Shown here: in pieces, positions 35,646-55,971 of the stretch
Position numbering within the stretch: position 1 is the first letter of the stretch
Layout of the letters: every line of letters begins with the position of its first letter
IMG/VR virus record: IMGVR_UViG_3300008453_000586
Strand: one strand, 5' to 3'
Length of the DNA: 64,000 nt
DNA from: a virus
Taxonomy: Duplodnaviria; Heunggongvirae; Uroviricota; Caudoviricetes
Position numbers and translations under genes: made by a program
The notes under the pieces: generated by a model
What the model saw: the letters and a program-made list of their open reading frames with translations, nothing else
The model's database searches: none
What the model was told of the DNA's origin: nothing

Positions 35646-36827
35646 ATGAAAACAGAAATTAAACAAATTCTTAGAGAAGGAGTTGTAATGGAACAAAGAA
35701 TCAAATTCAATATCCCTATTCCAGAAGACATTCAACAAATACAAGACGTATTCAAGAAAAACGGATACAAGTTGTACGTTGTTGGTGGCGCTGTTCGTGA
35801 TGCGTTGTTAGGTAAAATACCTAAAGATTACGATTTGGCTACAGATGCTGTCCCAGACAAAGTTGAAGAAATTATGGCTAAAGCTGGATTTAGAACTCTA
35901 CCAACTGGTAAAGCTTTTGGGGTTATCAACGTGTTTACTGACCTAGGAGAATACGAAATTGCTACATTTAGAGAAGACATCGGTTCTGGTAGAAGACCAG
36001 ATGGTGTATCTTTTACAAACATAGAAGGTGATGTTAAAAGACGTGACCTTACCATTAACGCTTTGTTTTTCGACATAGACACCAAAGAGATTGTAGACCT
36101 TGTAGGTGGTGTAGAAGACCTTAAAAAAGGTATCGTAAGAACTGTAGGTTCGGCACAAGATAGATTTGGTGAAGATAGACTTAGAATACTTAGAGCGATA
36201 AGATTTGCAGGTAGATTCGGTAGTGGTTTAGACCCAGATGTAGACGCTGCGTTGCAGCAAGATGCTAGTCTTGAAGGCATCTCTGGTGAACGTATTAGAG
36301 ATGAATTCATCAAAGGGCTTATTTCAGCTAAATCAACCGACGTTTACTTGTTGATGTTAGACAAATACAAATTGTTTGATTGGATATTTCCTAACTTGGA
36401 TGTTGATACAAGGGTATTTAGAAGAAACAGTGATTACAAAGCTGATGATTACATAGTATTGTTGGCTAGGTTGTTAAAAGGTAACAACGTTGATGTATTG
36501 AGGAAAAAACTAAATGATTTAAAATACTCATCGGATGAGATTAAAGCCATTGTGTTTTTAATTTCATTATTGAAGTTAGATGTTGACACTGCTTACTTAT
36601 TAAAGAAAGTACAACAAACTTCTGGAGTATCCAACGACCAAATTAGAAATTTTGGTAGCAACGAAGGTATATCATCACAATTGCTAGATGCTTTTGAAGA
36701 GTTCAGACTAACAGTGACTGGTCCAGAAGCGATGGAAAAATTCAATATAGGTCCAGGACCTGAACTTGGAAAAGCCATTCAAAAAATGGAAACTGATAAA
36801 TTTAAAAAATTATTAGGATTATCTTGA
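35646..36827 (+). CDS. tRNA nucleotidyltransferase (CCA-adding enzyme) / poly(A) polymerase family
   Basis: VVGGAVRDALLG...DYDLAT head-domain motif; RRDLTINAL; RLRILRAIRFAGR. N-terminal MKTEIKQILREG motif. Confidence 0.8.
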   Translation: MKTEIKQILREGVVMEQRIKFNIPIPEDIQQIQDVFKKNGYKLYVVGGAVRDALLGKIPKDYDLATDAVPDKVEEIMAKAGFRTLPTGKAFGVINVFTDLGEYEIATFREDIGSGRRPDGVSFTNIEGDVKRRDLTINALFFDIDTKEIVDLVGGVEDLKKGIVRTVGSAQDRFGEDRLRILRAIRFAGRFGSGLDPDVDAALQQDASLEGISGERIRDEFIKGLISAKSTDVYLLMLDKYKLFDWIFPNLDVDTRVFRRNSDYKADDYIVLLARLLKGNNVDVLRKKLNDLKYSSDEIKAIVFLISLLKLDVDTAYLLKKVQQTSGVSNDQIRNFGSNEGISSQLLDAFEEFRLTVTGPEAMEKFNIGPGPELGKAIQKMETDKFKKLLGLS

Positions 36828-36872
36828 TTTATTACTTTGCCATAATATATTTATGTAAAAATACTTTATATT

Positions 36873-37256
36873 ATGGCAAAATTTTTAGTAACGTTCACAG
36901 ATACGTTGGACGAAATTGAAATCAACGGTTTTACAGTAATGAATGATAAAGAAGTTGAAAACTTCGAAGAATTAGCCGCCAGCATCAATTGGCCATTTGT
37001 TTATAAGATGGGTACTGATGAATTAGAATACTCAAGCGGTGAAGATTTATTAAGCAGAATCGAATTCAAAGAAATCACAAACGAAGAAGCAAAAACATTT
37101 AAAAGATTATTTAACAACGAATTTGGTGTTTTTATCACAGAATCTTTCTTAGAAGAAGTTATCGGGGACGAAGACGAAATAGATTTTGATGATGATGAAG
37201 ATATAGACAATTTATACGACAACTACGGGGACGAAGACGATGATGATAACTATTAG
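36873..37256 (+). CDS. hypothetical acidic protein
   Basis: 127 aa with D/E-rich C-terminus. Confidence 0.35.
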   Translation: MAKFLVTFTDTLDEIEINGFTVMNDKEVENFEELAASINWPFVYKMGTDELEYSSGEDLLSRIEFKEITNEEAKTFKRLFNNEFGVFITESFLEEVIGDEDEIDFDDDEDIDNLYDNYGDEDDDDNY

Positions 37257-37716
37257 TTATAAACAACAACCTACTGGAAATACATGCGGTCCAACATGTA
37301 TATACATGGCTTTAAGATATGTTATGAACAAACCAAACGATTTACCGTTTGATGTTGAAATTTCAGACACAGTAGAGAAAATTGCTGAAGCATGCGGTAC
37401 TGATTGGGTGGTAGGAACACCACCAGATAAAATGATTAAAGGATTCGAAGCGTGTAACTTAAAATACATCGAATACATTCACTCTCCAAGACCTTTTGAT
37501 TTACTTAAACAAGTTATCGACTCAGATAATATACCAATTGTTAGAACAATAACACACGGTGTCCCACATTGGATAATAGTAAACGGATACAGTGAACAAC
37601 ACTTCGACATATTAGACCCATGGCAAGGAATAATCAAATATACACCAAAACAACTTAACGATATTTGGATGGTCAGAGACTATCAATTTTTTGAAATTAT
37701 TACAGATGCAGATTAA
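37240..37716 (+). CDS. C39-like (papain-fold) cysteine peptidase, putative
   Basis: YKQQPTGNTCGPTCIYMAL (Q...CG.aC catalytic Cys motif) and PHWIIVNGY (HyVV His motif). Confidence 0.45.
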   Translation: MMITISYKQQPTGNTCGPTCIYMALRYVMNKPNDLPFDVEISDTVEKIAEACGTDWVVGTPPDKMIKGFEACNLKYIEYIHSPRPFDLLKQVIDSDNIPIVRTITHGVPHWIIVNGYSEQHFDILDPWQGIIKYTPKQLNDIWMVRDYQFFEIITDAD

Positions 37717-38149
37717 AAAAGGAATACCAGAAGAATTAATAAATGATGTCTTAGAGTTTTCATACCCATACTTTAATCATCTTATGAGCAAATATATTTA
37801 CGAAGAGTATTTAAAATCAGTAAGCAATTGGGGTATATCATCTTTGCTACTTAATGAAGATGGAAAAATATTAGGCGTTTATTTATTAGGTAATCATCAA
37901 ATAACAGATTTTGTAACAGCATCAAAATATGATAACCTAGTAGGTGTTGAAGGAGTATTGTTGGTGGTAGATTCTACAATAAGAGGAATGGGTTACGGAA
38001 ACAAATTAAAAGATTACCCAAAAACACTAGGTGTTGACTATATTTGGGGTCAACAGTTCAAAGGTTTAAAAAATCTTGACGATTGGTTAAAACGCAGAGA
38101 ATTGGTCGCTACAACATCAGAAGTTTATATAACAGCTGAAATTTTTTAA
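37691..38149 (+). CDS. GNAT family N-acetyltransferase, putative
   Basis: VVDSTIRGMGYGNKL resembles GNAT motif A (R/QxxGxG/A). Confidence 0.45.
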   Translation: MKLLQMQIKKGIPEELINDVLEFSYPYFNHLMSKYIYEEYLKSVSNWGISSLLLNEDGKILGVYLLGNHQITDFVTASKYDNLVGVEGVLLVVDSTIRGMGYGNKLKDYPKTLGVDYIWGQQFKGLKNLDDWLKRRELVATTSEVYITAEIF

Positions 38150-38179
38150 AAAAAACTTGCACAGTATTTGAACTTTTTG

Positions 38180-38187
38180 TATCTTTG
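38180..38187 (+). promoter_or_regulatory. -7 box TATCTTTG with -33 TTG (aaacTTGcacag)
   Basis: Upstream of a small basic ORF. Confidence 0.45.
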
Positions 38188-54294: not shown

Positions 54295-54345
54295 TACCTC
54301 AAAACAATAACAATAAAATTAAAAACAAATTAAAAACAAAAAAAG

Positions 54346-54831
54346 ATGAAAAAATTAATTTATGTATTATTCGCGTTTATCGCGTTAACAGTTTCAGCAC
54401 AAGCTCAAGAAACTAAAAAAGAAAAACTAAACCAGTATGTGTCAGCTAGTTTATCGCTGGCTAATTCTAACGGACAAACGTTCAGCCAAAGCACTTATGC
54501 TAGTGTTGAGTATGGTATTGTTAGCAAGGGTATTGGTTATGGTTTAGCCGTGGGTCGTGGTCAATTAAACGGTGATGTTACAACAAACACCACAGCTCAA
54601 GATTTAAGAAACTATTTCTGGCAAGTTCGTGTACAACCTACATTTCCTTTGGGTTCAGTAACTGGTAGTGTAATTTTAGGTGCTGGTAGTTACTTTGCTA
54701 CATCTGACGCTGGTTTCATTGAATACGGTTTAGGTGTATCTAAGAGCTACGGTGATATTAGCTACGGTTTAACATACAGCAACTGGAATGGAGTTGACTA
54801 TGTAACTCCAAGTGTTAGTTACGCGTTTTAA
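54346..54831 (+). CDS. secreted beta-barrel-like outer-membrane protein
   Basis: Signal peptide MKKLIYVLFAFIALTVSAQAQ; Gly/Tyr/Ser-rich alternating pattern; terminal ...SVSYAF with C-terminal Phe. Confidence 0.45.
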   Translation: MKKLIYVLFAFIALTVSAQAQETKKEKLNQYVSASLSLANSNGQTFSQSTYASVEYGIVSKGIGYGLAVGRGQLNGDVTTNTTAQDLRNYFWQVRVQPTFPLGSVTGSVILGAGSYFATSDAGFIEYGLGVSKSYGDISYGLTYSNWNGVDYVTPSVSYAF

Positions 54832-54857
54832 ACGAATAAACCATTTTATAAAAAATA

Positions 54858-54889
54858 AAAATGGGTGTCTAATAGCACCCATTTTTTTC
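54858..54889 (+). terminator. rho-independent terminator
   Basis: Stem atgggtg/cacccat followed by a T-run. Confidence 0.6.
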
Positions 54890-54918
54890 TAGGTATTAAT
54901 TAAACAATAAATTACATC

Positions 54919-55971
54919 ATGAAAAAAATGATTAAATTTCCGTCTATCGAACAATTCAGAAGCGTAGTAGCTACTATCCTTAGACAATACAATTTCGTAG
55001 GTTTAGACGAGAATGGTGACGCTATTTATGACACCACTAAACCAAAACCAACACTTACATTCAAAGGTACTGTAAAACTTCATGGAACCAACGCTGGTGT
55101 TTCTTTCAAATACGGTTATGATAACACTAGCGAGTATTGGGTACAATCTCGTGAAAACATTATCACGCCAGAAAAAGACAATGCTGGTTTTGCTTTCTTT
55201 GTTGAATCACATAAAGAAGCTTTTAAAAAATTTGCTAGTCAAATTGATTCGTTAGGTATGTTCGATGTTCGTCACAATATCGTCACAATCTACGGTGAAT
55301 GGGCTGGTGGTAACATCCAAAAGGGTGTTGGTATTTCAAACCTACCAAAATCATTCTTTATCTTTGGTGTTAAAGTAACTCCGATTACACAAACCGAAGA
55401 AGAAGCTAGACAAAAACCAGCTTATTGGATTCCTTCACATTATTTAAAAAGCCCTGAGGATAACATTTACAATATTGAAGATTTCCAAACATGGACAATG
55501 GATATTGACTTTAACATGCCACAGTTGGTTCAAAACAAATTGTCTGAACTTACACTAGCTGTTGAAGAAGAATGTCCAGTTGCCAAAGCATTTGGGTTCT
55601 CTGGAATCGGTGAAGGTATCGTATGGTCAACTAACCTAAACGGTAACGTACACCGTTTCAAAGTGAAAGGTGAAAAACACTCTAGTTCAAAAGTAAAAAC
55701 ACTTGCAGCAGTTGACACTGAGAAATTAGAGTCAATCCAAAGCTTTGTTGAATATGCTGTAACTGAAAGTCGTTTCAACCAAGCGCTTGAAAACGTATTC
55801 CCTAACGAAGAACCAATCGAAAACAAAAAATTGGGTGATGTAATTCGTTGGGTAGTAAACGACGTAATAAAAGAGGAAATGGACACCATGACTGATAACA
55901 AAATCGAACCAAAAGATGTGAACAAATACATCTCTTCAAAAGTTAGAGATATGTTCTTTAAGTTGGTGTAA
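54919..55971 (+). CDS. Rnl2-like RNA ligase
   Basis: Motif I VKLHGTN (KxHGxN as in T4 Rnl2 KIHGTN), motif IV YGEWAGG, motif V RFKVKGEKH. Confidence 0.65.
   Translation: MKKMIKFPSIEQFRSVVATILRQYNFVGLDENGDAIYDTTKPKPTLTFKGTVKLHGTNAGVSFKYGYDNTSEYWVQSRENIITPEKDNAGFAFFVESHKEAFKKFASQIDSLGMFDVRHNIVTIYGEWAGGNIQKGVGISNLPKSFFIFGVKVTPITQTEEEARQKPAYWIPSHYLKSPEDNIYNIEDFQTWTMDIDFNMPQLVQNKLSELTLAVEEECPVAKAFGFSGIGEGIVWSTNLNGNVHRFKVKGEKHSSSKVKTLAAVDTEKLESIQSFVEYAVTESRFNQALENVFPNEEPIENKKLGDVIRWVVNDVIKEEMDTMTDNKIEPKDVNKYISSKVRDMFFKLV

Follow-up and report, generated by a model that had tools for sequence, protein, structure and literature searches.

The 64,000-nucleotide stretch of DNA analyzed here (the window) derives from an uncultivated phage that is large and low in GC, and it encodes what is probably a conserved tRNA maintenance module: a CCA-adding enzyme, an array of tRNA genes lacking CCA, a bifunctional polynucleotide kinase-cyclic phosphodiesterase (PNK-CPD, or kinase-2H protein), and RNA ligases of the Rnl1 and Rnl2 families (Table 1). 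We favor, with moderate confidence, a joint explanation of these genes in which the end-healing and end-sealing steps are predicted from sequence. Phage RNA repair kits as such are already known. The architecture predicted for the end-healing enzyme of this one is of the yeast/animal type, not the classic phage T4 type, which suggests a repair chemistry other than that of T4. A preliminary description of this DNA had grouped seven genes as a complete tRNA/RNA repair toolkit. An open reading frame was found at each of the seven positions, and HMM annotation with Pfam, PHROG, and NCBIfam profiles bore out the family proposed for each. The seven do not all form one RNA toolkit, and "complete" did not hold: no 2′-phosphate remover (Tpt1, HAD, or macro domain) was identified with confidence within the window. 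The true core also takes in a small acidic protein encoded between the kinase-2H and Rnl1-type ligase genes.

Table 1. Features of the predicted tRNA maintenance module and its neighbors, in window coordinates
Feature	Position	Strand	Basis or context
g34400, 407-aa protein, leader MKDFIKQLLRE	34400..35623	+	Directly upstream of CCA gene
Class II tRNA nucleotidyltransferase, CCA-adding type, without HD domain	35646..36827	+	Profiles, motifs, synteny
14-tRNA array: Ser, His x2, Trp, Ile x2, Met, Asn x3, Arg-ACG, Arg-UCU x2, Ser	38764..40472	+	ARAGORN, Rfam
ART-PolyVal ADP-ribosyltransferase-fold protein, leader MKDLIKNLLRE	41322..41918	+	Located within kit
DnaQ/ExoX-like DEDDh 3′-5′ exonuclease	41968..42726	+	RNase_T, ExoX-like_C, phrog_192
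PNK-CPD end-healing enzyme (predicted)	42751..43689	+	Profiles, solved relatives, synteny
Leader of kinase-2H protein, residues 1-11	42751-42783	+	Common to four proteins
Polynucleotide-kinase-like P-loop domain, ~residues 26-180	42826-43290	+	Kinase-2H protein
CNPase/Trl1-type 2H cyclic phosphodiesterase domain, ~residues 190-312	43318-43686	+	Kinase-2H protein
Inserted cassette: DUF4874/DUF4832 protein and collagen/YadA-repeat fiber protein	43718..47854	-	Divides kit in this genome
Small acidic protein, 119 aa, C-terminal D/E tail	48879..49238	+	Conserved between kinase-2H and Rnl1 genes
Rnl1-family ATP-dependent RNA ligase, sealing enzyme (predicted)	50121..51257	+	Profiles, T4 Rnl1 alignment, synteny
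RelA/SpoT-type HD phosphohydrolase, like small alarmone hydrolase	51783..52286	+	HD_4, TIGR00691, phrog_990
ATP-dependent DNA ligase, T4 gp30-like	52638..54038	+	phrog_114, DNA_ligase_A_M
Rnl2-family RNA ligase, second sealing enzyme (predicted)	54919..55971	+	Profiles, T4 Rnl2 alignment, synteny

CCA-adding enzyme and tRNA array

The CCA-adding enzyme named in the preliminary description was confirmed by matches to the PolyA_pol head domain (6e-34), PolyA_pol_RNAbd (1.5e-8), and phrog_2244, tRNA nucleotidyltransferase (2e-55). Its top NCBIfam model is NF009814, CCA tRNA nucleotidyltransferase (208.6 bits versus a cut-off of 290), and the translation contains the motifs GGAVRD, DYD, RRD, and EDRLR. 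ARAGORN located 17 tRNA genes in the window, 14 of them in the array; Rfam confirmed 16 of the 17 and added one tmRNA. An encoded 3′ CCA is absent from all 17, the 3′ flanks in the array reading N73-C-A-A, and the CCA-adding enzyme is therefore required for tRNA maturation and not for repair alone, a point missed earlier. The same observation makes a repair role unnecessary to account for this enzyme, which counts against the repair explanation. In 12 relatives the same array lies between the CCA and kinase-2H genes.

Kinase-2H protein

The fusion of a kinase to a 2H cyclic phosphodiesterase is real, with matches to AAA_33 P-loop kinases (4e-10) and to tRNA_lig_CPD (9e-6; 25.7 bits versus a Pfam cut-off of 23). 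The best solved relative of the kinase domain is T4 Pnk (E value of 0.0026 over residues 28-168); mammalian PNKP, the Pnkp kinase of C. thermocellum, and a tRNA-splicing kinase from Mucorales are also among the best. For the 2H domain, the solved structures that come closest are those of CNPase and Candida Trl1 KIN-CPD. No variation was seen in the P-loop, HSTDD, or DNTN motifs. A C-terminal domain of CNPase/Trl1 type, and not a DxDxT phosphatase, supports the earlier suggestion of a cyclic-phosphate chemistry unlike that of T4 Pnkp, with substrate and product predicted from fold and family. An identical copy of the protein is encoded on a 126-kb contig and relatives on contigs of 200-360 kb, and a 595-kb uncultured phage has a kinase-only homologue directly upstream of an Rnl1 gene.

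The fusion partners of the 2H domain were surveyed in its best 150 cluster representatives. Stand-alone 2H proteins of Acb1-like size make up 81 of the 150, which counts against the repair explanation. A counter-defense phosphodiesterase is a very improbable identity for the domain: by two methods it is clearly closer to CNPase and Trl1-CPD, its fusion partners are tRNA enzymes, and a tblastn search of 50,697 records with the whole kinase-2H protein found no match in a T4-like phage.

The commonest partner is a CCA-adding domain (27 of the 150), versus a kinase in 11-12, and in one related locus, L050, the 2H domain reads as fused to CCA. The CCA domains of three giant fusion proteins were confirmed against PDB, and P0314 (2332 aa) combines CCA and 2H domains with a segment homologous to g34400. 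The lead of CCA-adding domains among the partners, locus L050, and the HD domain by which the E. coli CCA enzyme removes 2′,3′-cyclic phosphate (PMC6961547), speak for a narrower role in which the 2H domain serves the CCA-adding enzyme only, clearing 2′,3′-cyclic phosphate from tRNA 3′ termini, while kinase and RNA ligases have unrelated jobs and anticodon breaks are not repaired. We consider this unlikely; the fusions and the E. coli precedent also count for the favored module. The partner of the 2H domain in this clade is a PNK-like kinase, and the fusion is followed by Rnl1 in 37/38 loci; a 5′ kinase would be pointless in 3′-end repair alone; and one eukaryotic protein among the 150 representatives carries kinase, 2H, and Rnl1-like ligase together.

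RNA ligases

Two distinct RNA ligases had been proposed from KxDG and KxHGxN motifs; both motifs are present, and the proteins score as members of the Rnl1 and Rnl2 families, respectively, each with the full set of nucleotidyl-transferase motifs. The first matches RNA_lig_T4_1 (3e-14), phrog_562 (5e-43), and TIGR02308 (4e-16, residues 37-342) and aligns with T4 Rnl1 (5e-8) at the equivalents of R54, K75/F77, K99, E159, E227, and K240/K242; its EKLDG, EGYVVV, and IKIK motifs fall on T4 Rnl1 K99, motif IV, and motif V. The match to the T4 RnlA family profile extends through much of the C-terminal domain. The second matches PF09414 RNA_ligase (2e-11), phrog_548 (1e-60), and TIGR02307 (4e-7); KLHGTN aligns with KIHGTN of T4 Rnl2, and YGEWAGGNIQKGV likewise aligns with T4 Rnl2. 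Its C-terminal domain received no family assignment. Thus, the ligases fall with RNA ligases just as the kinase falls with T4 Pnk and mammalian PNKP.

Conservation across related loci

Synteny was assessed in 43 related IMG/VR loci with a full-length kinase-2H gene. Related viral contigs, ∼43 in number and 53-84% identical, keep the order of the core genes, with the CCA gene upstream of kinase-2H in 20/20 loci and, downstream, Rnl1 in 37/38 loci with enough sequence, Rnl2 in 21/25, the DNA ligase in 23/28, the HD gene in 17/30, and the small acidic protein in 42/43 (median gap, 707 bp). The DEDD exonuclease is present in 6/39. Co-location therefore exceeds chance for a subset of the genes, and the claimed linkage of RNA healing, sealing, and CCA genes next to a tRNA array stands.

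The genes do not form one operon in this window. Across 20 kb, unrelated genes lie among them, such as Nudix, the fiber cassette, a DNA ligase, and a gene for an SPL-like protein. Kinase-2H and Rnl1 are not co-transcribed, being 6.4 kb apart with the convergent cassette between them. The DUF4832 protein of this cassette occurs in 0/42 relatives and the fiber protein in 6/36. T4 Rnl1 also promotes tail-fiber attachment, and the PHROG name of the Rnl1 family is "RNA ligase and tail fiber protein attachment catalyst." Such scattering, this family name, and the CCA-less tRNA genes would fit a coincidental collection of independent nucleic-acid and translation genes in a jumbo-phage early region, in which the CCA enzyme matures tRNAs, the ligases act otherwise, and the kinase-2H protein acts on nucleotides. 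There is only a small chance of this, as relatives with identities as low as 53% keep the gene order and the same modules are repeatedly fused into single proteins.

Proposed repair pathway

In the tRNA maintenance module that we favor, the CNPase/Trl1-type 2H domain would convert cyclic phosphate to 3′-OH/2′-phosphate, the PNK-like domain would phosphorylate 5′-OH, and the Rnl1-type ligase, or alternatively the Rnl2-type ligase, would seal anticodon-loop breaks. Where the acceptor end has been cut, this 2H activity may also unblock the 3′ end for rebuilding by the CCA-adding enzyme, which would additionally mature the CCA-less tRNAs that the phage encodes. T4 Rnl1 does not ligate 2′-P/3′-OH ends (PMC12440814); since the phage ligase matches the T4 RnlA family, the CPD product would block sealing unless a 2′-phosphatase exists. 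Candidates for 2′-phosphate removal would be the HD hydrolase of RelA/SpoT type, whose gene lies between those of Rnl1 and the DNA ligase, or host Tpt1/KptA after ligation; alternatively, the ligase may tolerate a 2′-phosphate.

Comparison with known systems

Eukaryal enzymes that heal tRNA have this PNK/CPDase architecture (PMC5434554). Fungal and plant Trl1 (KIN-CPD plus LIG), the lancelet PNK/CPDase, and vertebrate CNPase share with the phage protein the order of a P-loop kinase-like domain and then a 2H domain with two HxT motifs. Trl1-LIG and the partner ligase of the phage both belong to Pfam RNA_lig_T4_1, and healing and sealing reside on separate polypeptides in the lancelet (PMC5434554), as in the phage. 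The phage 2H domain is minimal (∼125 aa, with HxT motifs ∼48 residues apart, versus ∼210 aa in CNPase), and its sequence similarity to Trl1 and CNPase is marginal, as the Pfam bit score indicates. The Tpt1 partner of the Trl1 pathway was not found in the phage window, and whereas Trl1-LIG has an Arg334/Arg337 2′-phosphate pocket, the C-terminal region of the phage ligase appears from profile matches to resemble T4 RnlA instead. Unlike Trl1-type systems, the genes here occur in a phage context, without tRNA introns.

The heal-then-seal logic is also that of T4 Pnkp/Rnl1/Rnl2 tRNA repair, which counters the PrrC anticodon nuclease, and T4 Pnk is the best solved relative of the phage kinase domain. 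Healing of 3′ ends differs: T4 Pnkp uses a DxDxT (HAD) phosphatase and the phage a 2H cyclic phosphodiesterase, so that the predicted product carries a 2′-phosphate, which T4 Rnl1 cannot join (PMC12440814), in place of the 2′-OH/3′-OH of T4. This phage additionally has a CCA-adding enzyme and a large tRNA array.

Excerpts of a jumbo-phage survey (Iyer et al. 2021, PMC7824862) describe, next to tRNA arrays, various combinations of Rnl1, Rnl2, polynucleotide kinase, 2H phosphoesterase, CCA-adding enzyme, HD-alarmone phosphodiesterase, peptidyl-tRNA hydrolase, and RF-1-like proteins. They also report fusions of kinase to HAD phosphatase (PKN-HAD) and, for a few phages, KptA. The same excerpts contain no mention of a PNK-2H fusion, CCA-2H fusions, or a shared leader. 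The E. coli CCA enzyme likewise couples CCA addition to a 2′,3′-cyclic phosphodiesterase, making blocked tRNA 3′ ends rebuildable, and in relatives the coupling takes the form of CCA-2H fusions; the E. coli phosphodiesterase has an HD fold, in contrast to the 2H domain here, which in the window lies on the separate kinase-2H protein, 7 kb from the CCA gene.

Neighboring genes

Three of the genes first counted in the toolkit kept their family but not their role. The HD protein belongs to the HD family (HD_4, 4e-11; phrog_990, 6e-34) and is of RelA/SpoT type (TIGR00691 spoT_relA, 3e-15) rather than a generic end-healing phosphatase. The literature points to a possible accessory function in alarmone hydrolysis or in 2′/3′-(pyro)phosphate removal at tRNA ends; jumbo-phage work, as excerpted, takes this class as an anti-alarmone enzyme (PMC7824862). 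The exonuclease is a DEDD enzyme (RNase_T/DEDD superfamily, 6e-15; ExoX-like_C, 6e-9; phrog_192, "DNA polymerase exonuclease subunit," 5e-27), with the PolC exonuclease domain, ExoX, and DinG-exo as best matches. RNase T scores far below its cut-off (0.005; 16.6 bits versus 246) and the gene is missing from most relatives, which argues against tRNA 3′-end repair; it is probably a DNA enzyme outside the conserved kit. The DNA ligase is ATP dependent, as proposed, and of the ordinary T4 gp30 type (phrog_114, 4e-105; DNA_ligase_A_M, 6e-15); it is a replication enzyme, syntenic with the kit and no component of RNA repair.

The small acidic protein has no match in Pfam, PHROG, NCBIfam, or PDB, and g34400 has no family or PDB match. 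The ART-PolyVal protein lies physically with the kit and is not a Tpt1.

Shared N-terminal leader

An 11-residue N-terminal leader ending in L-R-E is common to g34400, the CCA enzyme (residues 1-11, MKTEIKQILRE), the ART-PolyVal protein, and the kinase-2H protein. The window yielded neither a prohead protease nor a capsid gene. The leader resembles the T4 capsid targeting sequence (CTS), in which ∼10-11 N-terminal residues are likewise common to otherwise unrelated neighboring proteins and which also ends in L-x-E, the T4 gp21 cleavage motif (PMC9026906; PMC3012670); the likeness is one of sequence alone. Were the leader a CTS, it would mark tRNA enzymes and an ART as cargo, whereas the cargo of T4 consists of restriction inhibitors.

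Conservation and distribution of the putative repair module

An ORF was found at each of the seven positions at which the preliminary description had placed an RNA repair gene, and its family assignments agree with profile searches (Pfam, PHROG and NCBIfam). For comparison of gene order, window proteins were mapped onto related viral loci, of which 43 encode a full-length homologue of the kinase-2H protein (a candidate end-healing enzyme with a 2H phosphoesterase domain); the denominators in the table are the loci with enough sequence. Order is conserved across these loci, and the stable module therefore comprises the CCA-adding enzyme, the tRNA array, kinase-2H, the small protein g48879, Rnl1, (the HD protein), DNA ligase and Rnl2. 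This order is kept down to 53% protein identity, and between the CCA and kinase-2H genes the relatives carry a tRNA array much like that of the window (His, Trp, Ile, Met, Asn, Arg-ACG, Arg-UCU and Ser).

Features of the window, N-terminal leader peptides, and gene position relative to kinase-2H in related loci
Feature	Coordinates	Characteristics	Leader (coordinates, sequence)	Position in related loci
Sigma-70 factor	8697-9530			
ArdC-N protein	13001-15457	818 aa; anti-restriction domain		
DUF2828 + DUF7788 protein	21498-22973	491 aa; phrog_850 "RNA-binding protein," 1e-156		
DnaJ-like protein	25372-26391	N-terminal sequence and phrog_14336		
ClpP	27316-28035			
tmRNA	28439-28816	Rfam, 58.9 bits		
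HNH endonuclease ORF	29878-30369			
Long-arm tRNA-like gene, Met (CAU)	30369-30455			
RF-1/GGQ-domain protein	30863-31264	133 aa; ArfB-like, 4.6e-24		
tRNA, CUA anticodon	33376-33448	Amber suppressor; "Pyl" per ARAGORN		
PTH2-like peptidyl-tRNA hydrolase	33576-33857	Short		
g34400	34400-35623	407 aa	34400-34432, MKDFIKQLLRE	
CCA-adding enzyme	35646-36827		35646-35678, MKTEIKQILRE	Upstream, median 7.4 kb, 20/20
Main tRNA array	38764-40472	14 tRNAs		
Long-arm tRNA-like gene, His (GUG)	39010-39095			
Long-arm tRNA-like gene, Ile (GAU)	39363-39447			
ART	41322-41918	ART-PolyVal domain	41322-41354, MKDLIKNLLRE	
DEDD exonuclease	41968-42726			Upstream, 6/39
Kinase-2H	42751-43689 (+)		42751-42783, MKKEIRTILRE	
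Cassette splitting the module	43718-47854 (-)	DUF4874/DUF4832 protein and 905-aa collagen/YadA-head-repeat fibre protein		Downstream: DUF4832 gene, 0/42; fibre gene, 6/36
g48879	48879-49238	119 aa		Downstream, median gap 707 bp, 42/43
Rnl1	50121-51257			Downstream, median gap 1.3 kb, 37/38
HD protein	51783-52286			Downstream, 17/30
DNA ligase	52638-54038			Downstream, 23/28
Rnl2	54919-55971			Downstream, 21/25
ORF with local Gp23 match	60640-61041	133 aa		
Kinase-like protein	61588-63338	Adjoins response-regulator receiver domain		

The g48879 protein, encoded between kinase-2H and Rnl1, has a strongly acidic C-terminal tail. Pfam, PHROG, NCBIfam and PDB searches detected neither a family nor a solved relative for g48879 or for g34400, which is encoded upstream of the CCA-adding enzyme. 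The minus-strand cassette is missing from most relatives and, from this distribution, looks like a recent local insertion into the repair module.

The window has a GC content of 33%, and no close DNA relative was present in 50,697 GenBank phage records (megablast, 14 kb), the sole match being a 39-bp collagen repeat. Full-length kinase-2H was found by tblastn in none of these isolated-phage records, which gave only half-length matches of ≤35% identity. Metagenomic contigs as long as 126 kb encode the identical protein, and at least 996 related proteins are found on contigs reaching 343 kb; in IMG/VR, viral contigs with lengths up to 362 kb contain 52 related loci. Among 185,579 bacterial and archaeal genomes (one per species), a single full-length copy was found, on a 170-kb contig in a Methanobacterium MAG bin that is probably a mis-binned phage. 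With almost no full-length copy in cellular genomes, the fusion therefore appears to be essentially limited to phages, and it is known only from uncultivated ones.

Predicted end healing by kinase-2H

The N-terminal part of kinase-2H matches AAA_33 (4e-10) and phrog_505, "polynucleotide kinase" (3.5e-11). Three motifs, GIPGSGKST, HSTDD and VDNTN, are invariant across 18 homologues and align with the P-loop, catalytic-Asp motif and DNTN motif of T4 Pnk and mouse PNKP, giving the Walker A, catalytic Asp and DNTN-type substrate motifs of a Trl1/CNPase-type kinase module. When the family profile was searched against the PDB, the best solved relative of the domain was T4 Pnk (E = 0.0026), with mammalian PNKP, the kinase of Clostridium thermocellum Pnkp and a Mucorales tRNA-splicing kinase ranked lower. 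These matches are weak yet point consistently toward polynucleotide kinases and, with the three motifs, uphold the kinase assignment of the preliminary description.

The C-terminal 125 residues contain two invariant HxT motifs, AHHMT and PHVT, and give a weak match, above threshold, to PF08302, the fungal tRNA-ligase phosphodiesterase (25.7 bits against a cut-off of 23). AlphaFold modeled this domain with confidence (pLDDT 86.5), and a Foldseek search of the whole PDB returned CNPase structures as top matches, with 6u05, which we take to be the KIN-CPD part of Trl1 from Candida albicans, at rank 2. The C terminus thus combines two H-x-T/S motifs with a fold like that of CNPase and the Trl1 cyclic phosphodiesterase (CPD). 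Two other identities for the domain were rejected: a T4 Pnkp-type DxDxT (HAD) 3′-phosphatase, as the domain has a 2H fold and T4 Pnkp aligns only with residues 28-169, and an Acb1 anti-CBASS nuclease, as Acb1 was not the closest relative in structure and sequence.

In eukaryal tRNA healing enzymes, a PNK-like domain is followed by a 2H CPD, as in yeast Trl1 KIN-CPD, lancelet PNK/CPDase and CNPase (PMC5434554), and kinase-2H has exactly this domain order. T4 Pnkp, by contrast, heals 3′ ends with a DxDxT phosphatase domain. [quoted passage not shown] A cyclic-phosphate chemistry different from that of T4, as suggested previously, is well supported by the fold and family of the protein, from which its activity is inferred.

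RNA ligases and the fate of the predicted 2′-phosphate

The Rnl1 protein aligns with T4 Rnl1 (5e-8), with equivalents of R54, K75/F77, K99, E159, E227 and K240/K242 lying within the motifs CRG, RKFFN, EKLDG, FELTTP, EGYVVV and IKIK, and matches phrog_562 (5e-43). It therefore possesses motifs I, III, IV and V together with R54 and K75/F77, the combination by which the Rnl1 family is recognized. It also matches RNA_lig_T4_1, the Pfam family common to T4 Rnl1 and Trl1, and residues 37 to 342 match TIGR02308, "T4 RnlA family," at 59 bits against a cut-off of 242; a PDB sequence search gave no alignment for its C-terminal domain. In the Rnl2 protein, KLHGTN and YGEWAGGNIQKGV align with T4 Rnl2, placing motif I (KxHGxN) in an Rnl2-type adenylyltransferase domain, with matches to PF09414 (2e-11), phrog_548 (1e-60) and TIGR02307 (4e-7, far under its equivalog cut-off); its C-terminal domain matched no family. 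Both proteins thus score as RNA ligases of the families originally proposed, rather than as DNA ligases or capping enzymes.

The nature of the healed end is critical to sealing. CNPase-, Trl1- and LigT-type 2H enzymes open 2′,3′-cyclic phosphate to 2′-phosphate, and in the Trl1 pathway the junction 2′-phosphate is taken off by Tpt1. T4 Rnl1 does not join 2′-phosphate/3′-OH ends, while Trl1 requires the 2′-phosphate and reads it through two arginines of its C-terminal domain, the Arg334/Arg337 pocket (PMC12440814). No scanned window ORF gave a Pfam match to Tpt1 (PTS_2-RNA), macro or HAD phosphatase domains. With a 2′-phosphate predicted, T4 Rnl1 rejecting such ends and no remover found among the scanned window ORFs, the repair kit is therefore not demonstrably "complete," as the preliminary description had it. 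One of three options must hold: a ligase tolerant of 2′-phosphate acts with host Tpt1/KptA, the HD protein removes the phosphate, or the CPD yields an atypical product.

The ART protein was considered as a Tpt1/KptA analogue and rejected. Structurally it lies nearest to a phage ejection protein, diphtheria toxin and PARPs, with Tpt1 ranking only 29th, and its family lacks the conserved Arg tetrad (Arg-His-Arg-Arg expected).

Three further enzymes had been assigned to RNA repair, and none fits that role well. First, the exonuclease is of the DEDDh type, contains an ExoX-like_C domain and best matches the PolC exonuclease domain, ExoX and DinG-exo, as well as the PHROG "DNA polymerase exonuclease subunit"; its match to RNase T is negligible (TIGR01298, 16.6 bits against a cut-off of 246). 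A role in tRNA 3′-end repair is unsupported for a protein that resembles DNA exonucleases and is absent from most relatives. Second, the DNA ligase is of the ordinary replicative type, resembling T4 gp30 (phrog_114, 4e-105). Third, the HD protein is a hydrolase domain of the RelA/SpoT type (HD_4, 4e-11; TIGR00691, 3e-15, residues 14 to 123), in which LHDAIED and KLADRIAN supply the H..HD..D metal ligands of a putative single-domain small alarmone hydrolase.

"HD-alarmone" phosphodiesterases of jumbo phages have been proposed to destroy alarmone signals (PMC7824862). Small alarmone hydrolases can also remove the 3′-pyrophosphate that toxSAS enzymes add to tRNA CCA ends, and human MESH1 is an NADPH phosphatase (bioRxiv 10.1101/2021.04.30.441581). 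By analogy with these precedents, we infer a possible link between the HD protein and tRNA ends.

CCA-adding enzyme and tRNA genes

The predicted CCA-adding enzyme is a class II tRNA nucleotidyltransferase (PolyA_pol head, 6e-34; phrog_2244, 2e-55) with GGAVRD, DYD, RRD and EDRLR motifs. Among NCBIfam models it fits the CCA equivalog NF009814 best (208.6 bits, below the cut-off of 290), with PcnB models scoring nearly as high. ARAGORN predicts 17 tRNAs in the window, 14 of them packed in the main array, and Rfam confirms 16. None of the 17 genes encodes the 3′ CCA; the flank reads N73-C-A-A, typically C-A-A-A after the discriminator (e.g., 38764-38851 and 40141-40215). Because CCA is not encoded, the enzyme would be required for maturation of the tRNAs that the phage itself encodes, independently of any role in repair.

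Three tRNA-like genes of 85 to 87 nt have a long, class II-style variable arm, and those with His and Ile anticodons each adjoin a normal-length isoacceptor; the long-arm His gene was not among the Rfam matches. Long His, Ile and Asn versions also occur in four related loci (L004, L006, L036 and L037). The amber suppressor tRNA is likewise found in another related locus (L028, 1815-1887). The HNH endonuclease ORF abuts the start of the long-arm tRNA-Met gene and may represent a tRNA-gene-associated homing endonuclease.

Domain fusions among relatives

A family profile search of 1.84 billion cluster representatives recovered 6524 relatives, the best 150 of which were scanned with the window's own proteins. 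Within these 150, the 2H domain stands alone in 81 (median, 160 aa), the kinase stands alone in 22, and 11 have a kinase-2H architecture like that of the window. A CCA-adding domain accompanies 2H in 27, preceding it in 24 and following it in 3. ART-PolyVal domains occur in four representatives, three of which also contain the CCA domain; one protein of 2332 aa (P0314) unites a g34400-like segment with CCA and 2H, and one amoebozoan protein (Cavostelium) carries a kinase, the 2H domain and a ligase of Rnl1-like type in a single chain. Fusions of the smallest style, such as P0357 (511 aa), consist of an N-terminal leader, a full CCA-adding enzyme (1e-101) and then 2H, while the large CCA-2H fusions reach 1400 to 2300 aa; in three giant proteins, the CCA domain was confirmed independently against the PDB.

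Judged by domain architecture, these fusions tie the 2H domain to two sets of partners: kinase and Rnl1 (for putative break repair) and, more often, the CCA-adding enzyme (for putative 3′-end repair). The latter parallels the CCA enzyme of Escherichia coli, whose HD domain strips 2′,3′-cyclic phosphate off tRNA ends (PMC6961547); the window CCA enzyme has no HD domain according to Pfam. A 595-kb uncultured phage (L060; LR756511.1, 8090-9962) encodes a 165-aa kinase-only homologue (ICSTDD and VDNTN) whose gene immediately precedes that of an Rnl1-like ligase, and the kinase-Rnl1 pairing therefore reaches beyond the 2H-fusion clade.

Six of the giant proteins (P0314, P0287, P0301, P0332, P0255 and P0281) are cluster representatives on metagenomic contigs of 6 to 322 kb. 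They combine CCA and 2H, sometimes with ART-PolyVal or a g34400-like segment, and some have a second LigT-like HxT motif. Several share the N terminus MTY.EFK..FLPEF, and each has >1000 unannotated residues.

A shared leader peptide

Four otherwise unrelated window proteins, g34400, the CCA-adding enzyme, ART and kinase-2H, begin with an 11-residue leader of the pattern MK..I[KR]..[IL]LRE, which was found on no further window ORF. Relatives down to 53% identity keep the leader on these gene families and also have it on a few further, unrelated small proteins; it is conserved as protein, not as DNA. The ART model places it in a detached helix at the N terminus, after which comes a linker of low confidence. 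The four proteins are exactly the modules that are fused in the giant multidomain proteins. A function as a cleavage linker in polyproteins was considered and rejected, as no LLRE-like motif was seen between the domains of the giant proteins.

The closest precedent is the capsid targeting sequence (CTS) of T4, the first 10 residues of unrelated internal proteins, which directs prohead entry and is cleaved off after L/I-x-E (PMC9026906; PMC3012670). The window leader likewise is a short N-terminal peptide on unrelated proteins that ends in L/I-x-E. ART-PolyVal domains are described in the jumbo-phage literature as typical of injected polyvalent proteins (PMC7824862). Neither a capsid nor a prohead protease gene was found in the window; a Pfam match to Gp23 spans only 48 residues (7e-15) of a 133-aa ORF, far too short to indicate a T4-like capsid. 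By analogy with T4, delivery of the leader-bearing enzymes with the DNA as virion cargo is plausible, if on balance doubtful.

In distant phages, neighboring genes share a different N-terminal peptide (MKLLLENWRKYL in L049, MNLLREYI in L052). Such runs include a stand-alone 2H protein (L049, 6409-11216; L052, 8205-11070; also L051, 7829-8493), beside which are encoded a protein kinase, a nucleotidase of the NT5C type and a protein with weak similarity to GNAT that narrowly misses the Pfam cut-off.

Implications for phage RNA repair

The model for phage RNA repair has been that of T4, whose Pnkp and Rnl1 remove the cyclic phosphate in full. A phage-restricted and widespread PNK-CPD with a CNPase/Trl1-type domain would imply a second healing chemistry in bacterial viruses. 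RNA repair gene sets beside phage tRNA arrays are already known, and the gene list would not surprise a specialist: according to a review, jumbo phages encode Rnl1, Rnl2, RtcB, polynucleotide kinases, and 2H and HAD phosphoesterases near tRNA arrays, and their sets also include KptA, CCA-adding enzymes, Pth and RF-1-like proteins (PMC7824862). Three aspects appear to be undescribed in the literature consulted: a large phage clade whose healing enzyme couples a PNK with a CNPase/Trl1-type CPD, the repeated fusion of CCA-adding enzymes to 2H, and the common N-terminal leader; earlier catalogues may mention the first two architectures.

Bacteria keep Tpt1/KptA though "no known pathways" generate 2′-phosphate RNA in them (PMC6097658). 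If the phage chemistry proceeds via a 2′-phosphate, it bears on this substrate puzzle and on the origin of the eukaryotic tRNA-ligase/CNPase healing module. The recurrence of CCA-2H fusions points to a separate, uncharacterized route of tRNA 3′-end repair, and the leader hints at tRNA repair enzymes as virion cargo, which would constitute a new class of injected counterdefense proteins.

A more ambitious proposal, which we consider improbable as a whole, is that the clade heals tRNA by the eukaryal Trl1/CNPase route (opening of cyclic phosphate to 2′-phosphate, then sealing that leaves a 2′-phosphate junction) and that CCA, PNK-CPD, ART and g34400 are packaged via the CTS-like leader and injected with the DNA. 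If so, the clade would be a first natural source of 2′-phosphate RNA in bacteria, which would supply bacterial Tpt1/KptA with the substrate it lacks and suggest that viruses had a part in how the eukaryotic healing module arose. Packing in the capsid and injection would make tRNA repair ready before any phage gene expression.

Other window genes

The tmRNA, ArfB-like and PTH2-like genes, which lie a short way upstream of the repair genes, together make up a ribosome-rescue set. The 491-aa protein with DUF2828 and DUF7788 may be a Ro/TROVE-like RNA-binding platform, as reported in some jumbo phages.
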